Shown here in pieces: positions 1-13,044 of a stretch of 13,095 bases of DNA. The notes under the pieces were generated by a model that saw only the letters and a program-made list of their open reading frames with translations, had not been told where the DNA came from and made no database searches. The DNA comes from an uncultured bacterium (GTDB taxonomy: Bacteria > Hydrogenedentota > Hydrogenedentia > Hydrogenedentales > JAEUWI01). The position numbers were made by a program, and so were the translations under genes. The stretch covers positions 1 through 13,095 of the forward strand of contig CAXBPH010000201.1 in NCBI GenBank assembly GCA_963977445.1, written 5' to 3'. Positions within the stretch are counted from its first letter, which is position 1, and the number at the start of each line of letters is the position of its first letter.

Positions 1-54
1 GAAGGTGAAGGTGAAGGTGAAGGTGAAGGTGAAGGTGAAGGCGAAGGCGAAGGC
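1..54 (+). repeat. GAAGGY hexamer tandem repeat encoding (Glu-Gly)9, truncated by the window edge
   Basis: gaaggt/gaaggc repeated nine times in frame. Confidence 0.95.
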
Positions 55-378
55 GTCGGAAACCTGGAACAAATTGCCGACGACCTGCTCACCGACTTTA
101 ACGACCTCGACGATGATGATAACGGCAGCCTCTCTATCGACGAAGCGCGGCGCGAGACACCCAGCCTGACGGCAGCCCAATTCAACACCCTCGACACCGA
201 CCACAACGGCGAACTCAGCCAGGCCGAACTCCGGGCCCAGCTACCGACGACCGGCGCAGGCTGTGCGGCAAAGATGAGCACTATAAATTCGGCCATTACG
301 GGGAAGCTCGAAGCACTCTTCCTACTCAGCATGACGGTCATGATTCTTGCCACCTGGCCCCAAGCCAAGAGCCCATAA
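1..378 (+). CDS. C-terminal fragment of a surface/secreted protein: (EG)n linker, two EF-hand-like Ca-binding loops, Gly-Cys motif plus hydrophobic tail (5' partial)
   Basis: Frame +1 is open from base 1 to TAA at 376-378: EGEGEG...VGNLEQIADDLLTDFNDLDDDDNGSLSIDEARRETPSLTAAQFNTLDTDHNGELSQAELRAQLPTTGAGCAAKMSTINSAITGKLEALFLLSMTVMILATWPQAKSP*. DDDDNGSLSIDE and DTDHNGELSQAE fit the 12-residue EF-hand loop. Absent from the ORF track because the start lies outside the window. Confidence 0.85.
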   Translation, partial: EGEGEGEGEGEGEGEGEGVGNLEQIADDLLTDFNDLDDDDNGSLSIDEARRETPSLTAAQFNTLDTDHNGELSQAELRAQLPTTGAGCAAKMSTINSAITGKLEALFLLSMTVMILATWPQAKSP

Positions 379-1455: not shown

Positions 1456-1506
1456 GTCCCGCGTGAATAGACGCAAAACCCCATTCCTACAGTGGAGAGA
1501 ATCACC

Positions 1507-2820
1507 ATGGCCGAATATTTCCCGACCGTTAAGAAGATAAAATACGAAGGCCCCGACAGCAAGAATCCCCTGGCCTTCAAACATTACAAAGCGACCCAGA
1601 AGGTCCTCGGTAAGACCATGGAAGACCACTTCCGTTTTGCCGTCTGCTATTGGCACACCTTCAAGGGCCTCGGCACCGATCCCTTCGGTGGACCCACGAT
1701 GATCCGGAGCTATGACGACGCCCCGACGGTCGACGGTCAGATCGAGCAAACCATGGACGCGGCCTTCGAGTTCATCAGCAAGCTCGGTGTCCGTTTTTGG
1801 TGTTTCCACGACGCCGACATCGCCCCCGAAGGCGAGACGCTGGACGAATCCCAACGTCGTCTCGACACGGTCGCCAAGCAGGCCAAAAAGCTCCAGAAAG
1901 AGTCGGGCATCAAACTGCTCTGGGGCACGAGCAATATGTTTTCCCACCGGCGCTTCATGTCCGGTGCGGCGACCAATCCCGATCCCGCCATCTTTGCCTA
2001 TGCCGGCGCCAAGGTCAAGAAGGCCATGGAAGTCACCAAATATCTTGGTGGCGAAGGTTACGTATTCTGGGGCGGCCGCGAAGGCTATGAAACCCTCCTC
2101 AACACCGACATGGGACGGGAACTCGACCGCCTGGCCCGCTTCCTCCACATGGCCGTGGACTACAAAGAAAAAATCGGCTTCAAGGGACAGTTCTTCATCG
2201 AACCCAAGCCCAAAGAGCCGACAAAACACCAGTACGACTTCGACGCGGCCAGCTGCCATGCCTTCTTGCAGAAGTATGACCTGGACAAACATCTCAAGCT
2301 CAATATCGAAGCGAACCATGCCCCCCTCGCTGGCCACACCTTCCACCACGAGCTCGAATATGCCGCAGCCAACGACCTCCTCGGCTCGGTGGACGCCAAC
2401 CGGGGCGACGAGCTGCTGGGTTGGGACACAGACCAGTTCCCCACCAACCTCTACGACACGACCCTCGCCATGTACACCATCCTCAAGGCAGGCGGTTTCA
2501 AATCTGGTGGCCTCAATTTCGACGCCAAACTGCGGCGCCAGTCCATCGACCCCGAAGACCTGTTCCACGCCCACATCGGTGCGATGGACGCCTTCGCCCG
2601 GGGCCTCAAGGCCGCTGGCAAGATGGTGAAAGACAAACGACTCGAAAAAATCGTGCAGAAACGCTATGCCGGTTGGGACACAGCCTTTGGCAAGAAAATC
2701 GAGTCCGGCAAGGCGACCTTGGATGACATGGACGCCTACACCCGCGCAAATGGCGAGCCCGAGCCCAAAAGCGGCCAGCAGGAACTGCTGGAAAACATTC
2801 TGAACGAATATATCGTATAA
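1507..2820 (+). CDS. xylA: Xylose isomerase (class II)
   Basis: Motifs FAVCYWHTF, FHDADIAPEG, WGGREGY, FIEPKPKEPTKHQYDFD, NIEANH, GWDTDQFP, GGLNFDAKLRR, SGQQELLE. ATG at 1507 follows the GGAGAG RBS, preferred over the GTG at 1492. Confidence 0.98.
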   Translation: MAEYFPTVKKIKYEGPDSKNPLAFKHYKATQKVLGKTMEDHFRFAVCYWHTFKGLGTDPFGGPTMIRSYDDAPTVDGQIEQTMDAAFEFISKLGVRFWCFHDADIAPEGETLDESQRRLDTVAKQAKKLQKESGIKLLWGTSNMFSHRRFMSGAATNPDPAIFAYAGAKVKKAMEVTKYLGGEGYVFWGGREGYETLLNTDMGRELDRLARFLHMAVDYKEKIGFKGQFFIEPKPKEPTKHQYDFDAASCHAFLQKYDLDKHLKLNIEANHAPLAGHTFHHELEYAAANDLLGSVDANRGDELLGWDTDQFPTNLYDTTLAMYTILKAGGFKSGGLNFDAKLRRQSIDPEDLFHAHIGAMDAFARGLKAAGKMVKDKRLEKIVQKRYAGWDTAFGKKIESGKATLDDMDAYTRANGEPEPKSGQQELLENILNEYIV

Positions 2821-2915: not shown

Positions 2916-2931
2916 TGTGATCCTTGTCACA
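2916..2931. promoter_or_regulatory. CRP/FNR-family (or Rex-like) operator palindrome
   Basis: TGTGA-TCCTTG-TCACA is an exact TGTGA-N6-TCACA with AT-rich flanks, immediately 3' of the -10 box. Confidence 0.6.
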
Positions 2932-2959
2932 AAAGCCTCTGAACGGGAGTTTCGCCATT

Positions 2960-4210
2960 ATGTCTGCCAAAAAAATGACACTACCTCAAACCATGTTAAC
3001 TTTGGTCATCGTGGGGGCAGCCCTTGGTCTTGGTTGGCGCGTCCTCATGCCCATCGTCGACGCCGCAGGCTCAGGCACGAAGAACGCCGGGGCAACATTC
3101 GAGCCCGACGGCCCCATTACGATTCGCACCTTCACCAAGGACGGCACACTGAGTGAACCCGTCACGACGGAGCCGGTCGTCCTCAGCGAAGCCGAATGGA
3201 AAAAACGACTCTCGGCGAATCAGTACAACATTCTCCGTGAAAAAGGTACGGAACGTGCCGGTACCGGTGCCCTCTTGAAAAATAAGAAAGAAGGCGTCTA
3301 CACCTGCGCAGGCTGCAAACTGCCCTTGTTTGAATCCACGACCAAGTTTGAGTCTGGCACCGGCTGGCCCAGTTTCTTCTCCCCCATCACCAAAGAAAAC
3401 GTACTCGAAGAATCCGATAACACCTATGGCATGGTGCGCACCGAAGTGCTGTGTGCCCGATGCGCTGGCCACTTGGGACACGTATTCAACGACGGCCCCA
3501 AACCTACGGGCCTCCGCTATTGCCTCAACTCGGCCTCCATTGAATTTACCGAGAATGATAACCTCAAGAGCCTCGCGGAAGAGCCCAAAATCATCGTTGC
3601 CTCAGCGGCATCGGGTGATACGCTCCCCTTCGTCACCCAAGATGTACCGCTGGCAACCGAATCGGGTAGCGCCAAGCTCGTTGTCGGCCTCGGTTGCTTC
3701 TGGTGCTCCGAGGCGGTCTTTGAGCAGCTGGATGGGGTGACGGACGTCATTTCCGGCTACGCCGGCGGCGATGCCAAAGGGGCCAACTACAAAGCCGTCT
3801 GCACCGGCACAACGGGTCATGCCGAAGTCATCGAGATTAGCTATGACCCCTCAAGAATCACCTATGGACAGCTGCTTCGGGTGTTCTTTACCGTCCATGA
3901 CCCCACCACCCTGAACTATCAAAAACCGGACAGTGGCACCCAATACCGCTCCGCCATTTTCTATCAAAGTGATGCCGAGAAGGCCCTCGCCGAAGCCTAT
4001 ATCGCTCAATTGACAGCCACAGGTAAATTTGGCGGTCCCATCGTCACTACCTTGGAACCCCTCGAAAAGTTCTATCCTGCCGAAGAGTATCACCAGGATT
4101 TTGTGAAGAAAAACCCCAACCACGGATATGTCCAGGCGTGGGCCGTGCCCAAGTTACACAAGCTGGAGAAAATGTTGAAGGCCGACAAGGCGGCAGCATC
4201 AAAAGGCTGA
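2960..4210 (+). CDS. msrAB: Bifunctional peptide methionine sulfoxide reductase, MsrB then MsrA domain, with N-terminal membrane anchor/signal
   Basis: MsrB motifs [45 protein letters not shown]. MsrA motifs [44 protein letters not shown]. Hydrophobic N-terminus [18 protein letters not shown] at 2960 follows GGGAG. Confidence 0.95.
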
Positions 4211-4266: not shown

Positions 4267-4485
4267 CTCGCCGTAGGGCAATACGTCCAAAAAGACTACG
4301 ATGCCCCCAGCATGGAACCTTTCTGGGTCAAGGTGGATTACACACCAACGTCGTCGCCCGGGCAACAAAGACTCCAGGCACGTGAAACGCCCCATACTCC
4401 CGGAAGTGGTCCCGAAATTTTATGACCGCGCCACAATGTGCTAGCATACGCGGACCGGGGTAAACTCTTTGTCAAAAGGATTAAC

Positions 4486-5655
4486 ATGCAGTTCCACACG
4501 CCATTTCGGGCAGCCGTCACCACCCTTGTATTTTTTTCCAGCCATCTGGCCTCCGCCGACCAGACCCAGCTCAAAGACGGCTCTTTGCTGGTGGGAGACA
4601 TCCAACAATTGAGCGAAGCGGTCCTTGGTATCAACACGCCCTACGGCCCCCTCTCCGTACCTTGGGACCAGGTCGCGAATCTCAACACGGCAGCGCCGGT
4701 CACGGTCAATCTGGAAGACGGCACCCAGGTAGCAGGCGTGCTCAACGCCGTAGACGGCCAACAGTTTGTACTTGGAGAAGGCACCGAGGAAATCCCCTTG
4801 ACCCTGACCGCCGTTACCGCCATCGCACGCGTCCCCGATGAGACCGAGGCACCGGCCGATGCGGAAGCTGCACCAGCAATGACGGAGGCCGACGAAGCAG
4901 CCGCTGCCGCACCAGCGATCTGGAAGGGTCGCGCGGAATTCGGTCTCAATGGCCAGTCCGGCAACAAGGAGCGCATCGATATGCGCTTGGGCATCGACGT
5001 CAATCGGGAAGCCGAGAACACCCGTCTGAATCTCTATTTGAAGGGTGAATACGCCGAAACCAATCGCGAAAAATCCGCCAATGAAGTCATGGGTGGGGCC
5101 CGCCTCGAGTATGATTTCAGCGAGCGGACCTATGTCTTTGCCAAGGTGGACCTGGAGTATGACGAATTTGAAGACCTTGACCTCCGTGCCACCGTCACCA
5201 CAGGTCTGGGTCATTTCTTCGTAAAACGAGAGAAGCTGGAGCTCAAAGGCTGGGTCGGTGCCGGTTACGAGCACGAGACCTTCACAAAAGACGCTGAACC
5301 CCTGCCCAGACCAACCAATTCCGAAGAATACGTGCGTCAGGCGCTACGTAGTCAGTTTATCGACAACGAGATCACCACCACCGAAGATTCTGCGGTCGTT
5401 GAGCTCGGCTACACCCTGCGGAAAGACTTCAAAGAGAACTTCCGCTTTAAACATGGCCTCACCTACTATCCTTCACTCGACAACCCCGGCTCCGAGTATC
5501 GCCTCGTCGCTGACACGGGCTTCGAATTCCCCCTCGGGAAAGAGCCCGACTGGACGCTGCGCACCGGTGTTCACCACGAGTACGATGCGACGCCCCGGGA
5601 AGGCATCGAGTCACTGGATACGACCTACTATCTGAACCTTGGTTACAACTGGTAA
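4486..5655 (+). CDS. DUF481/YdiY-like outer-membrane beta-barrel protein with signal peptide and small N-terminal domain
   Basis: Signal-like N-terminus ending HLASA-DQ, then LKDGSLLVG, an Ala/Glu/Pro linker, WKGRAEFGLNGQSGNKE, YDEFEDLDLR, alternating beta-strand pattern and terminal LNLGYNW (BAM-type aromatic C-terminus). ATG at 4486 follows AAGGA. Confidence 0.8.
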   Translation: MQFHTPFRAAVTTLVFFSSHLASADQTQLKDGSLLVGDIQQLSEAVLGINTPYGPLSVPWDQVANLNTAAPVTVNLEDGTQVAGVLNAVDGQQFVLGEGTEEIPLTLTAVTAIARVPDETEAPADAEAAPAMTEADEAAAAAPAIWKGRAEFGLNGQSGNKERIDMRLGIDVNREAENTRLNLYLKGEYAETNREKSANEVMGGARLEYDFSERTYVFAKVDLEYDEFEDLDLRATVTTGLGHFFVKREKLELKGWVGAGYEHETFTKDAEPLPRPTNSEEYVRQALRSQFIDNEITTTEDSAVVELGYTLRKDFKENFRFKHGLTYYPSLDNPGSEYRLVADTGFEFPLGKEPDWTLRTGVHHEYDATPREGIESLDTTYYLNLGYNW

Positions 5656-5855: not shown

Positions 5856-7463
5856 TCATCCTTCCACCACCTGCGCCCAACTCAGCCCAAACTTGGCCAA
5901 GTACTTTCCGAGCCTGTCTGCGTCATTCGTCGACTTCCGCTTCACGCGGGACACGGCGAAGAGCGTCCGGCCAGCCTCAGAAAGACTGCGGCTTTCCCGA
6001 CATACCCGCACCACCTCGGCCAATTGCACCCGATCAAAGGGGTCAATATCGGCAATGGCTTCGGACGATAATACCCGTCTCAGGGTTTCCCGCCCCGGGT
6101 CGACCGTCGTCCCTTCCCAGTCATGGCGAAGCCGCTCTATCTCCCGGTCCACTTCCCGCAGCGTAATGCGCCCGCCCGTCGCCAGGGTCATCATGCGGGT
6201 CACCGCTGCGCCCAGATCCCGAAAATTTCCATTCCACTTCCCCTCGGGCCCCATGGCGAACTTCAAAAATTTCGCCCGGGCCTCCTTATTAAACTGCACG
6301 TGGGTACCGCGTCGCTGAATATTCTTTTCCAGCTCGAATTCCAGGTTAGGGGCCAGGTCTTCCTTTCGGTCCCCCAATCCAGGCAAGGTGAAAGACCACA
6401 AGTTGATACGGGCCAACAGGTCTTCCCGAAAACGCCCTTCGACCACTGCATTCTGCAGGTCACGATTGGTGCCACAAATAAGCTGAAAATCGCTCTCTGC
6501 CGACCTGTCTGAGCCCACGGGAAGGAAACGCTTCTCCTCAATCGCCTGGAGCAACATGGCCTGCTCGTCCAGGCCCAACTCCCCCACTTCATCGAGAAAT
6601 AAGAGGCCTTTGTCCGCCGTTCGGAGCAATCCAGGGCGGTCCGTCGTCGCCCCCGTGAAGGAGCCTTTCACATGACCAAACAAGGACGCCATGGCCGTAT
6701 CCCCCCGCAGGGTCGCGCAGTTCACGGAAACAAAGTCCCCCTGCAGTCGTTGACGCAATTGCTTCAACGCGTAAATCTGGCGGGCGAGCTGCGATTTTCC
6801 CGCGCCCGTCGGTCCCGCAAGCAATATGGGCTGCCGACTGTTCACCGCTACCGTTTCCACCTCGTCAATCAGGGCATTGAAGGCGGCATTCTTCGTCTGA
6901 ATACCCAACTTGAGCAGGGAAACATCATCACGGTGTTCCTGCTTGAATCGCTTCGCCAACTGGTCATATTTCGAGAGGTCCAGGTCAATAGTGCTCCAGT
7001 TTCCCGGACTCCGCGCTCCCTCCTCGCGCCCCGGTCCCGTCTGCAACAGCTTCCCCGGCAGGTAGCGCGTCTCGGTAAGCAGGAAGAGACAAATCTGAGC
7101 AACGTGGGTGCCTGTCGTGAGATGAACCAGATACTCTTCCTTTTCCAGGTCGAAAGGATAATTCCGGGCAAACTCAAAGAGCATGGAGTAGACCTCCACA
7201 AAATCCCAGGGATCTTCACAGTGGGCGTCGTGGAGATTCACCTTTGTAGCGGCTGAAATCTCCCCAATGTCCGCACATACCCGCTTCGCGGTGCGAAAGT
7301 GTTTTTGCGACGCAAGCAGCTCGAAACGGTCCACCGCGAGATCGTCATGACGACACAAATCTACCGAGGGCCGCCATCGTTCCCAACGGGCCTCGCCCCG
7401 GCCATGGGCATCGAGCACCGTGCCCAGGAAGCCGATTACGACGGTTTTCTTCTTTTTCGACAT
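5856..7463 (-). CDS. rtcR: RNA repair transcriptional activator RtcR (CARF sensor, sigma-54 AAA+, HTH)
   Basis: N-terminus KKTVVIGFLGTVLD...RWERWRPSV, DPWDFVEVY, HLTTGTHVAQIC, Walker A GPTGAGKS, GHVKGSFTGA, LFLDEVGELGLDEQ, FREDLLARINLW, GNFRDL, and C-terminal SLSEAGRTLFAVSR...NDADRL.KYL.KFGL. Confidence 0.97.
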   Translation of the reverse strand: MSKKKKTVVIGFLGTVLDAHGRGEARWERWRPSVDLCRHDDLAVDRFELLASQKHFRTAKRVCADIGEISAATKVNLHDAHCEDPWDFVEVYSMLFEFARNYPFDLEKEEYLVHLTTGTHVAQICLFLLTETRYLPGKLLQTGPGREEGARSPGNWSTIDLDLSKYDQLAKRFKQEHRDDVSLLKLGIQTKNAAFNALIDEVETVAVNSRQPILLAGPTGAGKSQLARQIYALKQLRQRLQGDFVSVNCATLRGDTAMASLFGHVKGSFTGATTDRPGLLRTADKGLLFLDEVGELGLDEQAMLLQAIEEKRFLPVGSDRSAESDFQLICGTNRDLQNAVVEGRFREDLLARINLWSFTLPGLGDRKEDLAPNLEFELEKNIQRRGTHVQFNKEARAKFLKFAMGPEGKWNGNFRDLGAAVTRMMTLATGGRITLREVDREIERLRHDWEGTTVDPGRETLRRVLSSEAIADIDPFDRVQLAEVVRVCRESRSLSEAGRTLFAVSRVKRKSTNDADRLGKYLAKFGLSWAQVVEG

Positions 7464-7538
7464 TGATAATTATTCCTTCACCTGTCGCGCCGCCCCGCTT
7501 CGACGGAAGCGGAATGGTAACTATCACGGAGCACCGCG

Positions 7539-7726
7539 CAAAGGATCTTGGACATTCCTGTCCGAGGCAAGGCACTCCCAGGCATGGCCGCGCTATTGCC
7601 GTCTGTCGCAAAAACTCGAATCACAAGGGTAGCCCCCTGAATACTGTGGGGTTTCGATGCTTGAACATCGTACCCTTGGACACACCAGTGTGCTTTGCCT
7701 CGGACAGGAATGTCCAAGATCCTTTG
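7539..7726. repeat. 37-bp inverted repeat pair (36/37 match) flanking a 114-bp core; REPIN/MITE-like element
   Basis: CAAAGGATCTTGGACATTCCTGTCCGAGGCAAGGCAC (7539-7575) and GTGCTTTGCCTCGGACAGGAATGTCCAAGATCCTTTG (7690-7726). Each arm has an internal palindrome GGACA-N4-TGTCC. Confidence 0.85.
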
Positions 7727-7791
7727 TACCTACGCCCCCGGCACCATGCTGCCTTCCAATAGCCGCCTGCCGACAAAATACTTTCCTCGCA

Positions 7792-7915
7792 AATTTTATA
7801 AGTCACTATCCCACAGCCTAGCCCATTCGTCAATAAAAAATATATCCGACAAGATATCGCACTTCAGCTTTACCAATTTACCCTTTTATTTACGGCCCTT
7901 TCATAAACATAAAAG
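7792..7915. promoter_or_regulatory. AT-rich upstream activator region; candidate RtcR site ATATC-N6-GATAT (7842-7857) and possible IHF/bending tract
   Basis: AT-rich island in a GC-rich genome. The palindrome lies about 100-115 bp upstream of the predicted sigma-54 start, a typical enhancer distance. Confidence 0.5.
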
Positions 7916-7929
7916 TGCACCGTGGACTA

Positions 7930-7946
7930 TTGGCACGGCTCGTGCG
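7930..7946 (+). promoter_or_regulatory. Sigma-54 (RpoN) -24/-12 promoter divergent from rtcR; predicted start ~7957
   Basis: TTGGCACGGCTCGTGCG: GG at 7932-7933 and GC at 7944-7945, the canonical spacing of TGGCACG-N4-TTGC, next to a sigma-54 activator gene. Confidence 0.88.
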
Positions 7947-8186
7947 TTACGCACTTCAGTTGCGCGCACACCACGCCGCAACGTCACACAGTTGAATCAA
8001 GGACGCTTGCCAGGACCGCAACACCGGAAGGTACACGGCTCCCCTGGTACGTGGCTTGTCCAAACCGGACAAGTAATAGACGCTGACGCCCCGAGACCGG
8101 CGGCGCGGTTCGCCCAACACCCTTAACCGGATGCCATTGGCGTTCCGCGTTCCGTGAACGGGTTCTAAACTCTGGTGTCAGAAGCC

Positions 8187-8253
8187 CGGAGATGGCTCAC
8201 CGGTAGAGCCCGATGGTATCCCCATCGCACAGGTTCAACTCCTGTATTTCCGA
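8187..8253 (+). ncRNA. tRNA-like unit 1 (aberrant, probably non-decoding)
   Basis: Acceptor CGGAGAT/ATTTCCG (7 bp), D-arm GCTC-ACCGGTA-GAGC, stem CGATG-GTATCCC-CATCG, T-arm ACAGG-TTCAACT-CCTGT. Only 1-nt linkers before the D-arm and T-arm, and no encoded CCA. Confidence 0.75.
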
Positions 8254-8325
8254 ACACGGGTAGCTCAGTTTGGTTAGAGCATCGGCCACAAGCCGACAGT
8301 CGCGGGTTCGATTCCCGTCCCACAC
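8254..8325 (+). ncRNA. tRNA-like unit 2 (5-nt anticodon loop, 3-bp acceptor)
   Basis: TA-GCTC-AGTTTGGTTA-GAGC D-arm, TCGGC-CACAA-GCCGA stem, CAGTC variable region, GCGGG-TTCGATT-CCCGT T-arm. The acceptor pairs only GGG/CCC. Confidence 0.78.
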
Positions 8326-8803
8326 TCTTGAAACGAGTGCACCGTTCCGCAAGGAACACCAGAAGCCTCGAAGGAGGCGGTTTGCGTCTGAATGCCGTCG
8401 CACGGGAAGCCCATGAAGCCCGTCTACCGTGAACCTTTGTGGTCACGGGGAACGAAGCAGATCGGGCCGCCGGGCGACAACAGGCAAGACACCATGCGGC
8501 CGTTGGCGTTCGACTACGGACGAAACATTGGGATGTGCTGCCGAAAGCCCCTGCCAAGGCAAGGCTATCTTCAGCATCGGAACAATGGACCCCCTTGGGG
8601 GGGCGAGATGCTCCGGCAACTCACCCGAAATCCGCAGCGTATCCACCGGCCCCGTGTCGACCCCGTGCAATCAGGCACAGACCGTCTCCTGACGGGCCAA
8701 CTAACAAGCGGCTGACTGGCTATCCACAGGATGCCAGCGACCATAGAAATCACTTCGGTGATGCAATAAAAATCCGGAAATATCCCAGGAAAGGAGGAAC
8801 ATC

Positions 8804-9937
8804 ATGATACATACCATCGCAACCCTTGCACGGCACACATGGACCCGCGTCCGCGTGCGGAAACACGAAATCGGACTGCTCTTCAAGGATAACGCCTTCG
8901 AGGCCATCCTCGAGGCGGGAGCACACCACTTTTTCGACCCCTGCGGTCGCCTCATGGTGAACCTCCTGGACGAGCGAAGTGCCGTGTGGACCCATCCCTA
9001 TATGGATGAGGTAATCAAGGCAGGTGCTTTTGAAAACCGGGCTCTGGTGCTGGACTTGAAGGAGAATGAGCGGGCCATCGTGACGGTGGACGGCATGATC
9101 CGACTGGTTCTCGACGCCGGGCGGCACGTCGTACCCAATACCCTGAAAACAGTAACCGCGGAAGTGCTAAGCACCGATGAGATTCGCTTCAACCATGCCC
9201 GGATGAATGCGATCCTCAACACCGGTGGTACGGCGGCTATCTTCAGCGTCCATCAGGTTGAAACCGGTCAAGCGGGCCTCCTGTATGTCGACGGCGTGTA
9301 TCAGGATACGCTGACATCCGGGCGTCATGTCTTCTTCAAAAAAGTGGGTGTCGTCAAAATTCAGATGGTCGACCTGCGGGAGCGGGTGCTCGATGTCGGT
9401 GGCCAGGACATCATTACGGAAGACAAGGTCTCCATCCGCCTGAACGCCGTGGTGGCCTACCGGGTGACGGACGCCCGACGTTTTGATGAAGCGACGGAGG
9501 ACGGAGGCCAGACCCTCTATCGGGACACCCAGCTCGCACTGCGGGCAACGGTAGGTACACGCAACCTGGATACGCTGCTGGCGGAAAAGGATGCTGTCAC
9601 CCAGGAACTCGCAGAAACCCTGCGGGCCCGGGCCGAGCAGCTGGGATGCGTGGTGCTCAATGTGGGTATCCGGGACATTATCCTTCCCGGTGACATGAAG
9701 GACCTGATGAACAAGGTTACCGAAGCGAAAAAGGTGGCGGAAGCCAACCTCATCGTCCGGCGCGAAGAAACGGCAGCCATGCGGAGCCAGGTAAACACGG
9801 CGAAGCTGCTGGAAAACAACCCCACGCTCATGCGACTTCGTGAGCTGGAAGTACTGGAAAAAATCGCAGGCCAGAATAAGCTCAAAATCATGTTGGGCGA
9901 AAAAGGCCTCAGCGAGCGGGTGATGAACCTGCTCTAA
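8804..9937 (+). CDS. SPFH/Band-7 domain 'slipin' family protein
   Basis: AGGAGG RBS at 8792-8797. Three repeated N-terminal beta modules (EIGLLFKD..LEAGAH, ERAIVTVDG..LDAGRH, QAGLLYVDG..LTSGRH), then SPFH core VDLRE..GQDIITEDKVSIRLN, QLALRATVG..LDTLL, GIRDIILPG, RREETAAMRS, NPTLMRLRELE. Confidence 0.92.
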   Translation: MIHTIATLARHTWTRVRVRKHEIGLLFKDNAFEAILEAGAHHFFDPCGRLMVNLLDERSAVWTHPYMDEVIKAGAFENRALVLDLKENERAIVTVDGMIRLVLDAGRHVVPNTLKTVTAEVLSTDEIRFNHARMNAILNTGGTAAIFSVHQVETGQAGLLYVDGVYQDTLTSGRHVFFKKVGVVKIQMVDLRERVLDVGGQDIITEDKVSIRLNAVVAYRVTDARRFDEATEDGGQTLYRDTQLALRATVGTRNLDTLLAEKDAVTQELAETLRARAEQLGCVVLNVGIRDIILPGDMKDLMNKVTEAKKVAEANLIVRREETAAMRSQVNTAKLLENNPTLMRLRELEVLEKIAGQNKLKIMLGEKGLSERVMNLL

Positions 9938-9977
9938 CACGAGCAGGTTGACGTGGGCTGTGGCAGTCCGGGGACGG

Positions 9978-10020
9978 GCCGCTTCCGGTGTTCTTTAGAG
10001 CACCGGGAGCGGCTATTTTC
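9978..10020 (+). terminator. Terminator hairpin closing the RtcR-dependent unit
   Basis: 16-bp stem GCCGCTTCCGGTGTTC-TTTA-GAGCACCGGGAGCGGC (two G:U pairs) followed by TATTTTC. Confidence 0.8.
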
Positions 10021-10281
10021 ATTCCTACGGTCGCCAAACCGCACAGGTTGGCGAACTCATTAAACCCAGCGAGTCGAAGGATATCGCCGTTCTCGTTCAC
10101 ACCCGGGAACCGGGCAGAAACCCTCAGGACGGGCTGCACGGGCGGGTATTCCTGTGGGAACGATGAATCAGCGAGGTGCGGGCGGAGCGCCAAACAACGG
10201 AACCCGCTGTGCCCGAGTAATGGTTGGAACCCAAAAGGGAAAATTCACTTCCATCCAAACGTGCCCCGAAGCGGTCATTTA

Positions 10282-10290: not shown

Positions 10291-10362
10291 CCCTCTCCTT
10301 AAGCCGAAGTGGGCAACGGCAGTTTTATACGCCCCGAATACCAAGGATGGAACACGCCATAC

Positions 10363-13044
10363 ATGCGACATGCTTTACGACTTTCCCCCGGCGGGCAATT
10401 GCGCTGGGAGTCGCTACTTGACGATGCCAAAGGCCTCGCGCCTCTACAACAGCGATTTTCTGAAGACTGGCGGGTCGGTTTGTTTGCCCTCGCGGCAGAT
10501 AAACTTTCGGTGGATACCTATCCCACGTTGCTCTTCTGGCAGGAATTTTCCAGCCATTTTCTCACGACCCTGTGCCACATCCCCGGCAATACGGATGAGG
10601 TGGTGGTACCCCGACTCAGTGATGAAGAAATAGAGTCCATTGTGCTTCATGCGCCGCCCATGACGGGTGGCGAGTATCTATCCGTAACGATGCTGGGGCG
10701 CATCTGGAAGTCTCTCGAAACCTGGGTGAATGATCGGGCTGCCCTTGATGGCGGACTGGAAGCCTTTCTGCGCCAGCATGCGCCCGCGTGGCACAAAGTC
10801 GGCATGGTCTGTTTCCAATTGGCCGAAAACCCATCGGACTCCGGTCGGCCCTTCGCCTATATGGCCACCTATACACCGGGATTTAACGCGGCAGGCAACC
10901 TGAAGCACCTCCCCCTCCGTAGTGCCATCGAACAATTCACCGAATCAGGCAATGAATCTGCCTTGCAGAAGCTGCTCAACCCCGTCCGTCTGGCCGGCAA
11001 GCGCTGCCCCTGGGTTAAAGATCTGCTGGAGTCGGGCGAGGTCTATGAGGCGTGCGCCTGGACGACTCCCGAAGCCTATCGGCTATTGCAGGACGCGGAA
11101 GTGCTTGAAGAATGTGGTTTGGCCCTGCGACTTCCCGATTGGTGGAAAAAGCGGGCCCGTCCTCAGGTGGCCGTGACCATTGGTGACGAAACCATGACCG
11201 CCATGGGTGCCTCCGCACTCCTGGACTTCAAGATGGATATCGCCCTGGGCGATGAACATCTCACCGACGACGAAGTAAACGACTTGCTCCTGGGTGATGA
11301 TGGACTGGTCCTTTTGAAAGGCCAATGGATTGAGGTAGACAAGGCCAAGCTCAATGAAGCCCTGGCCCATTGGCGGGCCATCGAAGAGACCGTCAAAGAT
11401 GGTGAAATCGATTTTATAGAGGGAATGCGTCTCTTGGCGGGTGCTTCCAAAGATCTCACCGCCGAAGTAGAGGCCGACGACGATCACGACTGGGTCCATA
11501 TCACGGCAGGTACGGCCATGCGCGAGCTACTGGCCAACCTCCACGACCCAGCCAATCTGGACACCCTGAATGCACCGGAAGGCCTCAAGGCCACCCTGCG
11601 CCCCTATCAGCATGACGGCCTCGCCTGGCTCCACCTCTTGAGCGAGCTCGGCCTTGGTGCCTGTCTGGCAGACGACATGGGCCTGGGTAAAACCGTCCAG
11701 GTCCTGGCAGCACTCCTTTGTCGGCGACGGGACGAACGGGCGGACACCCTGCCCCCCGCGCTCCTCATTGTGCCCGCATCACTCCTGGGCAACTGGAAGA
11801 ACGAATCGAACCAGTTCACACCGGCCCTGCGAATTTCCATTCTTCACGCTTCCGAAATGGACCCCGAAGAAATGGATGTGCTCGCGGACGAAGAAGACCC
11901 CAATCGCTTTGCCAATATCGACGTCCTCATGACGACCTACGGCATGATTACCCGACTGGATTGGCTCCAGAACCTCGTGTGGGACATGCTAATCCTCGAC
12001 GAAGCCCAGGCCATCAAAAATCCGGGCACCCGTCAGAGCAAGACCATCAAGAAGTTACAGGCCCGCTCCCGGGTTGCCCTTACCGGTACGCCCATTGAAA
12101 ACCGCCTGGGTGACCTGTGGTCCCTCTTCGATTTCCTGAATCCCGGCCTCCTCGGCTCGGCCAGTGTCTTCAAGACCTTCCTGAAGGGCCTCCGCGCCCG
12201 GGAGCATGATCACTATGCGCCCCTGCGCCGCCTGGTCAACCCCTATATCCTTCGGCGGCTCAAGACCGACCGCAGCATCATTGCCGATCTGCCGGACAAG
12301 ACAGAGACGACCCGGTACTGCAATCTTTCCAAGACACAGGTACGCCTTTACCAGAAAACCGTGAACGCCATGACGCGCGCCCTCGAGCATGCCGATGGAA
12401 TTTCACGTCGTGGCCTGGTCTTGCAGACCCTCATGCGCCTCAAGCAGATTTGTAACCATCCGAGCCAGCTTTCGGGTGACGGAGAATACCGCGCCAGCCA
12501 CAGTGGCAAGTTTCAGCGCCTCGCCGAGATCTGCGAAGAACTCGCCGAACGCCAGGAACGTGTGTTGGTCTTCACCCAGTTTCGCGAAATCATCCCGGCA
12601 TTGGAAGAGCATCTGGCCGAAGTGTTTGGCCGTCGCGGCCTCGCCCTCCACGGCGGCACGGCCGTCGGCAAACGCCGCACCCTCGTTGACCGTTTCCAGG
12701 AAGATGACGGTCCGCCCTTCTTCATCCTGTCCATCAAGGCAGGCGGCACCGGGCTGAATCTCACCGCAGCGTCACACGTCATTCACTTTGACCGCTGGTG
12801 GAACCCTGCTGTGGAAAATCAGGCCACCGACCGGGCCTTCCGAATCGGACAGAAGAAAAATGTGCTCGTCCACAAGTTTGTCACCCTCGGAACAGTGGAA
12901 GAACGCATCGACACCCTTATCGAGGAAAAGCGCCACCTGGCCGACGAAATCCTGAGTAGCGATGGTGAAATCAACCTGACCGAATTGGGCGACGACGAAC
13001 TACTCGAATTGGTCCGACTCGACGTAAACCGCGCGACGGTGTAA
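10363..13044 (+). CDS. SNF2/SWI2-family DEAD/DEAH-box helicase
   Basis: LRPYQHDG, LADDMGLGKT, ILDEAQAIKN, LTGTPIENRL, LRRLKTD, LVFTQF, AGGTGLNLTAASHVIHFDRWWNPAVENQATDRAFRIGQ. ATG 10363 is preferred over GTG 10309, but the start is uncertain. Confidence 0.95.
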   Translation: MRHALRLSPGGQLRWESLLDDAKGLAPLQQRFSEDWRVGLFALAADKLSVDTYPTLLFWQEFSSHFLTTLCHIPGNTDEVVVPRLSDEEIESIVLHAPPMTGGEYLSVTMLGRIWKSLETWVNDRAALDGGLEAFLRQHAPAWHKVGMVCFQLAENPSDSGRPFAYMATYTPGFNAAGNLKHLPLRSAIEQFTESGNESALQKLLNPVRLAGKRCPWVKDLLESGEVYEACAWTTPEAYRLLQDAEVLEECGLALRLPDWWKKRARPQVAVTIGDETMTAMGASALLDFKMDIALGDEHLTDDEVNDLLLGDDGLVLLKGQWIEVDKAKLNEALAHWRAIEETVKDGEIDFIEGMRLLAGASKDLTAEVEADDDHDWVHITAGTAMRELLANLHDPANLDTLNAPEGLKATLRPYQHDGLAWLHLLSELGLGACLADDMGLGKTVQVLAALLCRRRDERADTLPPALLIVPASLLGNWKNESNQFTPALRISILHASEMDPEEMDVLADEEDPNRFANIDVLMTTYGMITRLDWLQNLVWDMLILDEAQAIKNPGTRQSKTIKKLQARSRVALTGTPIENRLGDLWSLFDFLNPGLLGSASVFKTFLKGLRAREHDHYAPLRRLVNPYILRRLKTDRSIIADLPDKTETTRYCNLSKTQVRLYQKTVNAMTRALEHADGISRRGLVLQTLMRLKQICNHPSQLSGDGEYRASHSGKFQRLAEICEELAERQERVLVFTQFREIIPALEEHLAEVFGRRGLALHGGTAVGKRRTLVDRFQEDDGPPFFILSIKAGGTGLNLTAASHVIHFDRWWNPAVENQATDRAFRIGQKKNVLVHKFVTLGTVEERIDTLIEEKRHLADEILSSDGEINLTELGDDELLELVRLDVNRATV

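Follow-up and report, generated by a model that had tools for sequence, protein, structure and literature searches.

The rtcR-slipin locus

The window analysed here, a 13,095-nucleotide (nt) contig stretch (CAXBPH010000201.1, assembly GCA_963977445.1) from an uncultured bacterium of the Hydrogenedentota, carries a gene for the sigma-54 activator RtcR and, on the opposite strand across a gap of 1340 nt, a gene for a slipin, a protein of the Band-7 (SPFH) family. Judging from alignment and consensus folding, the non-coding part of this gap (7957-8803) encodes a structured RNA of ~740 nt, composed of a 5′ extension, a 5′ domain, two tRNA-like modules, and a 3′ domain, and related RNAs lie upstream of slipin genes in several phyla. 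An original prediction, drawn from the letters of the window alone, had placed rtcR divergently from a sigma-54 promoter, with a transcript starting near 7957 that would cover ~850 nt of non-coding sequence and a single slipin gene before a strong terminator, and had listed no rtcB, rtcA, or TROVE gene. These features were all borne out (Table 1). The non-coding stretch measures 847 nt and the open reading frames (ORFs) inside it have no Pfam match, and none of the 20 window ORFs scanned against Pfam (12, then 8 more) contains an RtcB, RTC, or TROVE domain.

Related loci were collected with the slipin as query, which returned 4536 related proteins, many of them labelled 'slipin family protein' by their sources. 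An alignment of 29 slipins, searched against one genome per species, gave 536 confirmed places, and the best 80 of these 536 are the loci studied here. The closest relatives of the window, L001 and L002, are Hydrogenedentes-type genomes. Alignments were made with MAFFT, including its E-INS-i mode; alignment A2 comprises the window, L001, and L002, alignment A5 comprises 53 sequences, and the 56-sequence set excludes L026, which has an ambiguous anchor.

By its domain and equivalog matches, the rtcR product is a full member of its family, with a CARF-type sensor, an AAA+ sigma-54 interaction domain, and a C-terminal DNA-binding region. The ORF matches Pfam RtcR (1.1e-77) and Sigma54_activat (4e-48), scores 783.5 bits against the NCBIfam equivalog NF038308 (cutoff 650), and is labelled RtcR--CARF_AAA_HTH by PADLOC. 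On the other side of the gap, TGGCACGGCTCGTGC at 7931 is the only plus-strand match in the window to TGGCA[CT]-N5-NTG[CAT]. This motif occurs exactly once per region in 10/10 rtcR-linked intergenic regions, compared with 0.95% of shuffled regions, and the window promoter aligns column for column with those of L001 and L002 in A2. With loose scoring that allows two mismatches, seven promoter-like sites are found where 6.4 are expected, so that such a site is not rare by itself. Taken as sequence motifs, the -24 and -12 elements form the divergent promoter of an RtcR-controlled unit, and the position of the -12 GC places the predicted start near 7957. In the rtcR-linked locus L020, a run of N at ~6264-6360 hides the DNA between rtcR and the promoter, and the rtcR match there begins at query residue 73 because this run masks the DNA.

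Table 1. Features of the window, with the rtcR-slipin unit first and the flanking genes last
Feature	Position	Strand	Evidence or detail
rtcR (sigma-54 activator, N-terminal RtcR/CARF-type sensor)	5856..7463	-	Pfam, NCBIfam, PADLOC
Window-specific insertion beside the rtcR start, outside the conserved unit	7464..7748	.	Missing in L001/L002 (A2)
Sigma-70-like candidate promoter for rtcR, TTGACG-17-GATAGT	7805..7833	-	Consensus scan only, weak
Sigma-54-type promoter TGGCACGGCTCGTGC	7931..7946	+	-24 GG 7932-7933, -12 GC 7944-7945
Clade-specific 5′ extension (hairpins)	7957..8081	+	A2 and RNAalifold; 125 nt
Family-wide 5′ domain, CUGAYGCC ... CGGCGC ... variable hairpin ... GUGUUCCG ... GGGUUCUGA ... 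GUGUCA	8082..8181	+	A5
tRNA-like module 1, extra module of the window's clade	8187..8253	+	Cloverleaf in 3-sequence consensus fold
tRNA-like module 2: D, anticodon-like, and T arms	8258..8321	+	Rfam tRNA 40.5 bits
Two small hairpins	8323..8357	+	P1 8323-8339; GCAA-tetraloop hairpin 8344-8357
3′ domain	8365..8697	+	Long-range closing helix 8365-8380 / 8682-8697
Spacer before slipin	8698..8803	+	UUCG hairpin 8749-8762; ribosome-binding site AAGGAGG 8791-8797; no T-run
Slipin, 377 amino acids: three beta modules, SPFH core, long C-terminal helices	8804..9937	+	Band_7 3.7e-27
Intrinsic terminator at the end of the unit	9977..10024	+	17-bp stem 9977-10014, 11 GC pairs, then ATTTTCATTC (T-rich tail)
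EF-hand fragment	1-378		Pfam
TIM-barrel protein	1492-2820		Pfam
MsrB-MsrA fusion	2924-4210		Pfam
DUF481 protein	4438-5655		Pfam
SNF2 helicase	10309-13044		Pfam

Architecture of the large RNA

Conservation among the window, L001, and L002 is strong from the promoter to ~8375, with hairpins that carry compensatory changes, and is weaker from there to ~8700. Over 8082-8364, the two relatives are 79-80% identical to the window and have the same architecture. The 5′ extension belongs to this clade; its hairpins show compensatory changes among the three sequences, and it has no matches beyond them except partial nhmmer matches in L023 and L026. The 5′ domain, ~100 nt lying just 5′ of the tRNA-like module, is shared by the whole family. 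It includes near-invariant CGGCGC, GUUCCG, GGGUUCUGA, and GUGUCA in the 53 sequences of A5, and a 7-bp helix (GGCGCAC/GUGUGUU) in which three pairs have double changes in at least three sequences each.

The 3-sequence consensus fold shows module 1 as a full cloverleaf whose acceptor stem has 7 bp and whose 'anticodon' loop has 5 nt; the Rfam tRNA score of this module, 24.8 bits, lies under the gathering score of 29. The Rfam tRNA match of module 2 spans model positions 5-66 only, the outer acceptor stem being absent, and its acceptor-like stem has only 3 bp in the same fold; homologues of this module are found in related loci, and their arms covary. ARAGORN accepts nothing in the window as a tRNA gene, both modules included, and this result, the 5-nt loops, and the partial or sub-threshold Rfam matches together indicate that neither module is a genuine tRNA gene. 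The large tRNA-mimic RNA of the original prediction stands as a large structured RNA with tRNA mimicry, now divided between two tandem tRNA-like modules rather than held in one.

Downstream of the modules, hairpin P1 is shared by most family members, and the outer helices that the 56-sequence consensus assigns to the 3′ domain (~375 nt) recur in the 3-sequence fold; the fit of the window to some inner helices was judged by eye and from the 3-sequence fold only. The spacer that follows has no T-run, so the RNA and slipin probably form a single transcript in the window. A scan against Rfam 15 with E up to 10, covering the window interval, L023, and L078, returned only tRNA-type and chance matches, and no Rfam family covers the 5′ or 3′ domains.

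Conservation and covariation across phyla

Of the 69 loci that have more than 700 nt upstream of slipin, a profile search placed the RNA there, on the slipin strand, in 68. In 66 of those 68, the match extends over more than 70% of the 431-position profile, to which 55 of the RNA-positive loci had contributed, the remainder being independent. A 3-sequence and then a 56-sequence profile recovered the tRNA-like module with ~370 nt downstream in nearly all loci, and the profile of the whole RNA has 536 positions (~540 consensus positions). Genomes in the RNA family are labelled Planctomycetota, Hydrogenedentota, Desulfobacterota, Geobacter, Phycisphaerae, Thermoanaerobaculia, and Entotheonella, and one is an actinomycete bin.

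RNAalifold applied to the 56 sequences gave 46 consensus pairs, 13 in the tRNA-like module and 33 in eight long-range helices of the 3′ domain, and in 40 of the 46 both partners have changed in one sequence or more. Standard pairs fill 91.5% of the pair cells, compared with 77.9% when the 3′ letters are shuffled and 34-48% when the 3′ partner is slid by 1-3 columns. Cells with changes on both sides number 372, against 113 after shuffling and 51-76 in the slid control; in neither measure do any of 500 shuffles reach the observed value. G-U pairs are frequent, occurring in 43 of 56 sequences at one position and in 49 of 53 at another, and these pairs and the orientation of the tRNA-like module both assign the RNA to the plus strand.

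Within the tRNA-like module, the D-loop and T-loop columns are almost invariant and the anticodon-like stem covaries strongly. The anticodon-like loop has 7 nt in 55 of the 56 sequences and keeps C32 in 48/55 and A38 in 52/55, while positions 34-36 are hypervariable. Over the 56 members, this loop (columns 55-61 of alignment A4, which are 8287-8291 in the window) keeps C32 and A37-A38 and takes 40 different sequences. The rtcR-linked locus L023 has a weak second tRNA-like match (23.1 bits) at 6350-6414, upstream of its 5′ domain, and extra tRNA-like modules thus occur beyond the window's clade too, at another position.

Gene context in related loci

By tblastn, a divergent rtcR lies upstream of slipin in nine of the 80 loci (L001, L002, L012, L018, L019, L020, L023, L052, and L071). 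Six of these nine have rtcB in the same unit, the exceptions being L001, L002, and L071. The original prediction had proposed a comparison of synteny among rtcR-slipin loci, and the outcome is divided: L001 and L002 share both the gene order of the window (msrBA, rtcR, gap, slipin, SNF2) and its lack of a ligase, but most other rtcR-linked relatives hold rtcB. No RNA ligase adjoins the Band-7 gene in the window, L001, or L002. Among all 80 loci, tblastn with representative neighbours found RtcB in 13, RtcA in nine, RlaP in five, and Pnkp in two, so that some repair enzyme is present in 18/80, and an HNH endonuclease in 26/80. The kinship with RNA-damage responses that had been proposed for the unit is thus upheld by distant relatives with rtcB, rtcA, RlaP, or Pnkp in the unit.

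The RNA and slipin stay together in settings that differ widely. Where rtcB is present, it separates the RNA from slipin in L018 and L052 and follows slipin in the other loci, and L028 has ~930 nt between its RNA and slipin. Twenty-three of the 80 loci have an array of 11-39 same-strand tRNA genes, with the RNA-slipin pair at its 3′ end. These arrays, which include L004, L005, L006, L009, L013, L030, L036, L045, L078, and 14 more, end with tRNA-Cys, the large RNA, and slipin; in the array loci that were read, an HNH gene lies between tRNA-His and tRNA-Trp, and two bins hold two arrays each (L009 with L013, and L030 with L078). That the RNA remains with slipin across inserted rtcB genes and tRNA arrays favours a functional pair over a leader. 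On this comparative evidence, the conserved core of the system is the RNA and slipin, and RtcR, ligase or cyclase, and tRNA arrays are its interchangeable company. By the same comparison, the window is a pared-down RtcR version with an enlarged RNA, which includes an extra tRNA-like module and the 125-nt 5′ extension.

Two features beside the rtcR start stand apart from this core. The 285-nt insertion at 7464-7748 contains an inverted repeat of 37 nt (arms 7539-7575 and 7690-7726, 97% complementary, 114 nt between them) and could represent a small mobile element or else a structured insert where the rtcR promoter lies. The sigma-70-like candidate promoter is the one site returned by a consensus scan for which 1.1 are expected.

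The slipin protein

The AlphaFold2 model of the slipin, built from the 29-sequence alignment (predicted local distance difference test score, pLDDT, 80.9), comprises three beta modules of five strands each, together with an SPFH core and long helices. Modules 1 and 2 are copies of module 3, which is the N-terminal part of SPFH (BLASTP E 8e-9 and 3e-4), and these duplicates occupy residues 13-209 (window 8840-9430). Foldseek ranks the cages of stomatin, prohibitin, HflK/C, and QmcA highest, with E from 1e-14 to 1e-10 over 220-247 columns for the first three. To our knowledge, all solved SPFH proteins assemble into a ring or cage.

Of the traits of this cage family, an SPFH core followed by long helices is present in the model, and a membrane anchor is absent. 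No transmembrane segment was found in the slipin, whose highest 19-residue Kyte-Doolittle window is 1.27, and the hydropathy maximum of 120 homologues has a median of 1.34. Lacking any hydrophobic segment, it is a predicted soluble protein, and the earlier description of the slipin as membrane-associated is not supported.

Full-length Foldseek comparison with vault chains gave E 2.4e-10 over 405-454 columns with a low TM-score. A separate model of residues 1-195 (pLDDT 89.6) has no structural match at E ≤ 0.001, with a vault chain at rank 37 (E 0.16); on this ground, major-vault-protein repeats are not claimed for the slipin, and the likeness to vaults is kept as an analogy only. PADLOC has no model for the slipin, and phage records contain no homologue at E ≤ 1e-5. 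In the array locus L006, the slipin frame has an in-frame stop (7001-7540), which may mark a pseudogene or an assembly error.

Relationship to known systems

Burroughs and Aravind (2016) predicted the b7a-tRNA (for 'band 7-associated tRNA') beside a Band-7 protein and RtcB, an element cited in bioRxiv 10.1101/312249 as unvalidated. The window resembles this arrangement in having a Band-7 gene preceded by a tRNA-resembling RNA, and the setting is likewise one of RtcB/RtcR neighbourhoods. By sequence and context, the module at 8258-8321 is the homologue of the tRNA-like element in related loci and matches the predicted b7a-tRNA. Two differences separate them: the b7a-tRNA, as summarised in that preprint, is tRNA-like only and the RNA of the window's family has ~540 consensus positions with 5′ and 3′ domains of its own, and the window unit has no RtcB. 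The literature covered on b7a-tRNA, slipin/RtcB, RtcR/SPFH, and tRNA-like RNAs linked to RtcR or SPFH, a set to which the 2016 b7a-tRNA paper itself did not belong, contained no description of the 5′ and 3′ domains. What appears new here is the large RNA with its two domains and its pairing with slipin across phyla; what was known beforehand, so far as the preprint relates it, is a predicted b7a-tRNA beside Band-7 and RtcB.

Among known systems, the rsr-yrlBA-rtcBA operon of Salmonella offers a parallel. It is an RtcR/sigma-54 operon that encodes Ro60 (Rsr), a ring-forming RNA-binding protein, together with the tRNA-like YrlA/YrlB RNA. Control by RtcR and sigma-54, a non-coding RNA with a tRNA-like domain, and an adjacent protein from a ring-forming family are common to both. 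The window differs in having an SPFH partner instead of a TROVE protein, and its RNA has several times the length of Rfam's 114-position YrlA model, which scores 19.2 bits against the window (gathering score 69, E = 1). The canonical rtcR-rtcBA locus of E. coli shares with the window a divergent rtcR and a sigma-54 promoter, and differs from it in that the window unit lacks rtcB and rtcA. An SPFH gene has been reported within the rtc locus of P. aeruginosa (PMC13086221), and RtcR homologues are also reported at the head of defence operons (PMC11090510), so an rtcR without rtcBA has precedent. The vault particle, consisting of the major vault protein, vault RNA, and the TROVE protein TEP1, can be compared with the genes and slipin model of the window: a soluble SPFH-type shoulder with a long helix and a small RNA partner are alike, but the slipin N-terminus is made of SPFH beta-module duplicates and gives no significant match to vault repeats.

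The tRNA arrays connect the RNA-slipin pair to work in cyanobacteria. In Table 1 of PMC10272220, Anabaena without TrcR shows derepression of the slipin gene alr0740 (42-fold), the upstream 'hypothetical' gene alr0739 (71-fold), rtcB (77-fold), and an HNH gene, alongside a 26-tRNA operon, in a translational-stress regulon. By analogy with the loci described above, the RNA region might have been annotated there as the gene alr0739. PMC8421152 describes long arrays of up to 43 tRNA genes from seven phyla, Planctomycetes among them, in which an HNH gene is conserved and rtcB is co-regulated; its authors propose that the array tRNAs could be sponges for toxin RNases. Stomatin is mentioned 0 times there, and its passages on the arrays contain no link to slipin with a large RNA. 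The co-response of slipin, rtcB, HNH gene, and tRNA array in Anabaena thus parallels the RNA-slipin pairs that end arrays in the collected loci. The window differs from both in having no tRNA gene array, and it has RtcR in place of TrcR.

Slipins 34-36% identical over ~90% of their length were also found by tblastn in enterobacteria, in plasmid-labelled records. In a Citrobacter record (L082, 3957-7910), a gap of 448 nt separates rtcR from slipin, a nucleotidyltransferase gene is also present, and a ligase is absent, and in E. coli (L083, 3001-5454) a slipin-nucleotidyltransferase unit with no adjacent rtcR lies between yjbD and lysC. At a query coverage of at least 80%, the E. coli unit is present in 1629 of 5426 complete genomes (~30%), and no rtcR, rtcB, or rtcA is annotated in the surrounding 7.7-kb region. 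Its leader has a GG-N10-GC promoter and a ~300-nt conserved stretch with only a T-arm-like hairpin, and the unit could possibly hold a second RtcR-dependent promoter in E. coli. The enterobacterial units are similar to the window in their slipin, in the GG-N10-GC promoter, and in the lack of a ligase, with rtcR adjoining in Citrobacter, and they differ in carrying a nucleotidyltransferase and in the leader. A small homologue of the RNA family in this leader was considered, since some motifs look alike by eye, and was rejected after nhmmer with both profiles gave no matches at E up to 10.

Interpretation and alternatives

The locus is best read as a ligase-less version of an RtcR-controlled RNA-damage module that is built on a slipin and a partner RNA, the two being proposed to form a ribonucleoprotein; taken as a whole, this reading falls just on the probable side. 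RtcR would oligomerise and activate the sigma-54 promoter, and the transcript would carry first the structured RNA of ~740 nt, then the slipin gene, and then the terminator. The slipin, from its fold family, would be soluble and assemble into a ring or cage, and the RNA and the slipin oligomer would make up one ribonucleoprotein, in which the tRNA-shaped elbow and the flanking domains may dock the RNA to the slipin and perhaps to tRNA-handling enzymes. Such a particle could hold or shelter damaged tRNAs or the enzymes that repair them, as might be compared with Ro60-YrlA in the Salmonella rtc operons. The ligase and cyclase of the window organism would be encoded elsewhere or be dispensable. 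The former may be the case, given that the E. coli slipin units have no rtcR, rtcB, or rtcA annotated nearby and that RtcR is reported to depend on RtcA and RtcB for its activation in E. coli (PMC9650030).

Several observations weigh against this reading. If RtcR activation needs RtcA and RtcB, a ligase-free unit may depend on genes outside the window. Among 66 related loci, 22 have a run of at least four T after the closing helix, though the window, L001, and L002 do not, so co-transcription of the RNA with slipin is not universal. The window alone among the 56 aligned members has an atypical 5-nt loop in place of 7 nt, and its row in the 56-sequence alignment is partly misaligned. Single-sequence folding gave z = -3.44 for the plus and -3.78 for the minus strand, and these scores, being alike on both strands, are given no weight.

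A bolder extension of the same reading is possible, although it is more doubtful than the reading itself. The b7a-tRNA would be only the tip of an undescribed class of large structured RNAs (~540 consensus positions, ~740 nt in the window) that contain a tRNA-shaped module and, with a soluble, anchor-less SPFH protein, would form a cage-like ribonucleoprotein induced by tRNA breakage. Bacteria would thereby have a counterpart to Ro-Y RNA particles, and as an analogy to vaults, that can function with no dedicated ligase in its operon.

Three alternatives were weighed, of which a decoy is the likeliest, a cis-acting leader comes second, and a relic last. As a decoy or sensor, the RNA would be a tRNA-shaped bait for anticodon nucleases or other tRNA-cutting toxins, merely stabilised or sequestered by the slipin; once induced, it would soak up the toxins, or its cleavage would supply RtcR with cyclic-phosphate fragments. 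The nearly invariant body of the tRNA-like module, combined with 40 different forms of loop positions 34-36 among the 56 sequences while C32 and A38 are kept, would suit such a bait, as would the place of the RNA at the end of many long tRNA arrays and the toxin-sponge role proposed for array tRNAs in PMC8421152. Against this, both loops in the window have 5 nt and are poor mimics of a 7-nt anticodon loop, the conserved and covarying 5′ and 3′ domains (~470 nt) would be superfluous for a simple decoy, and the variability of the loop may reflect a mere lack of constraint, which together make a decoy unlikely.

Less likely still is that the RNA has no role of its own and acts in cis, as a 5′ untranslated region that gates slipin transcription or translation, for example by sensing a tRNA-related signal. 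Its position directly upstream of slipin in most loci would fit, as would the lack of a terminator between the two in the window and the attenuator-like look of the T-run that follows the closing helix elsewhere. Against a leader stand the rtcB gene that intervenes in L018 and L052, the distance found in L028, and the ~540-nt consensus, which far exceeds known leaders. Where the terminator stem is present, it is the RNA's own invariant closing helix, for which no alternative fold was found, and Rfam scans of the window interval and of the equivalent stretch of two relatives returned no riboswitch or leader family reaching its gathering score.

That the interval is instead a decayed rtcB/rtcA or tRNA array, with the tRNA-like pieces as functionless pseudogenes, is very improbable: rtcB does stand in the unit of six of the nine rtcR-linked relatives, arrays lie upstream in many relatives, and ARAGORN rejects both window modules, but the reading is contradicted by the covariation, the RNA is kept across phyla with compensatory changes, L001 and L002, themselves without a ligase, retain the same architecture, and tblastn with the relatives' 9 RtcB, 7 RtcA, 8 RlaP, 16 HNH, and 1 Pnkp ORFs found nothing at E < 0.4 in 7464-8803 (the best window match, E 0.029, lies inside rtcR) and nothing in the intergenic regions of L001 and L002. 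On this point too, the original prediction, which took the interval for something other than a deletion remnant, agrees with the evidence, and the refuting condition that it had set itself does not hold for the near relatives.

Significance

Few large structured RNAs of bacteria combine strong covariation with the lack of a known function, and each one has opened structural and functional work. The RNA described here, read as the partner of slipin in an RtcR-controlled module, would be tractable, having a known inducer (tRNA damage acting through RtcR), a constant protein partner that belongs to a cage-forming family, and ties to long tRNA arrays and to a translational-stress regulon that has been shown experimentally in Anabaena. 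A related slipin unit with a sigma-54 promoter is present in ~30% of complete E. coli genomes, and bench work in an easy host is therefore feasible. The module would join RNA repair, SPFH scaffolds, and tRNA arrays, which are usually separate fields, and it hints at a role for SPFH proteins that have no membrane anchor.

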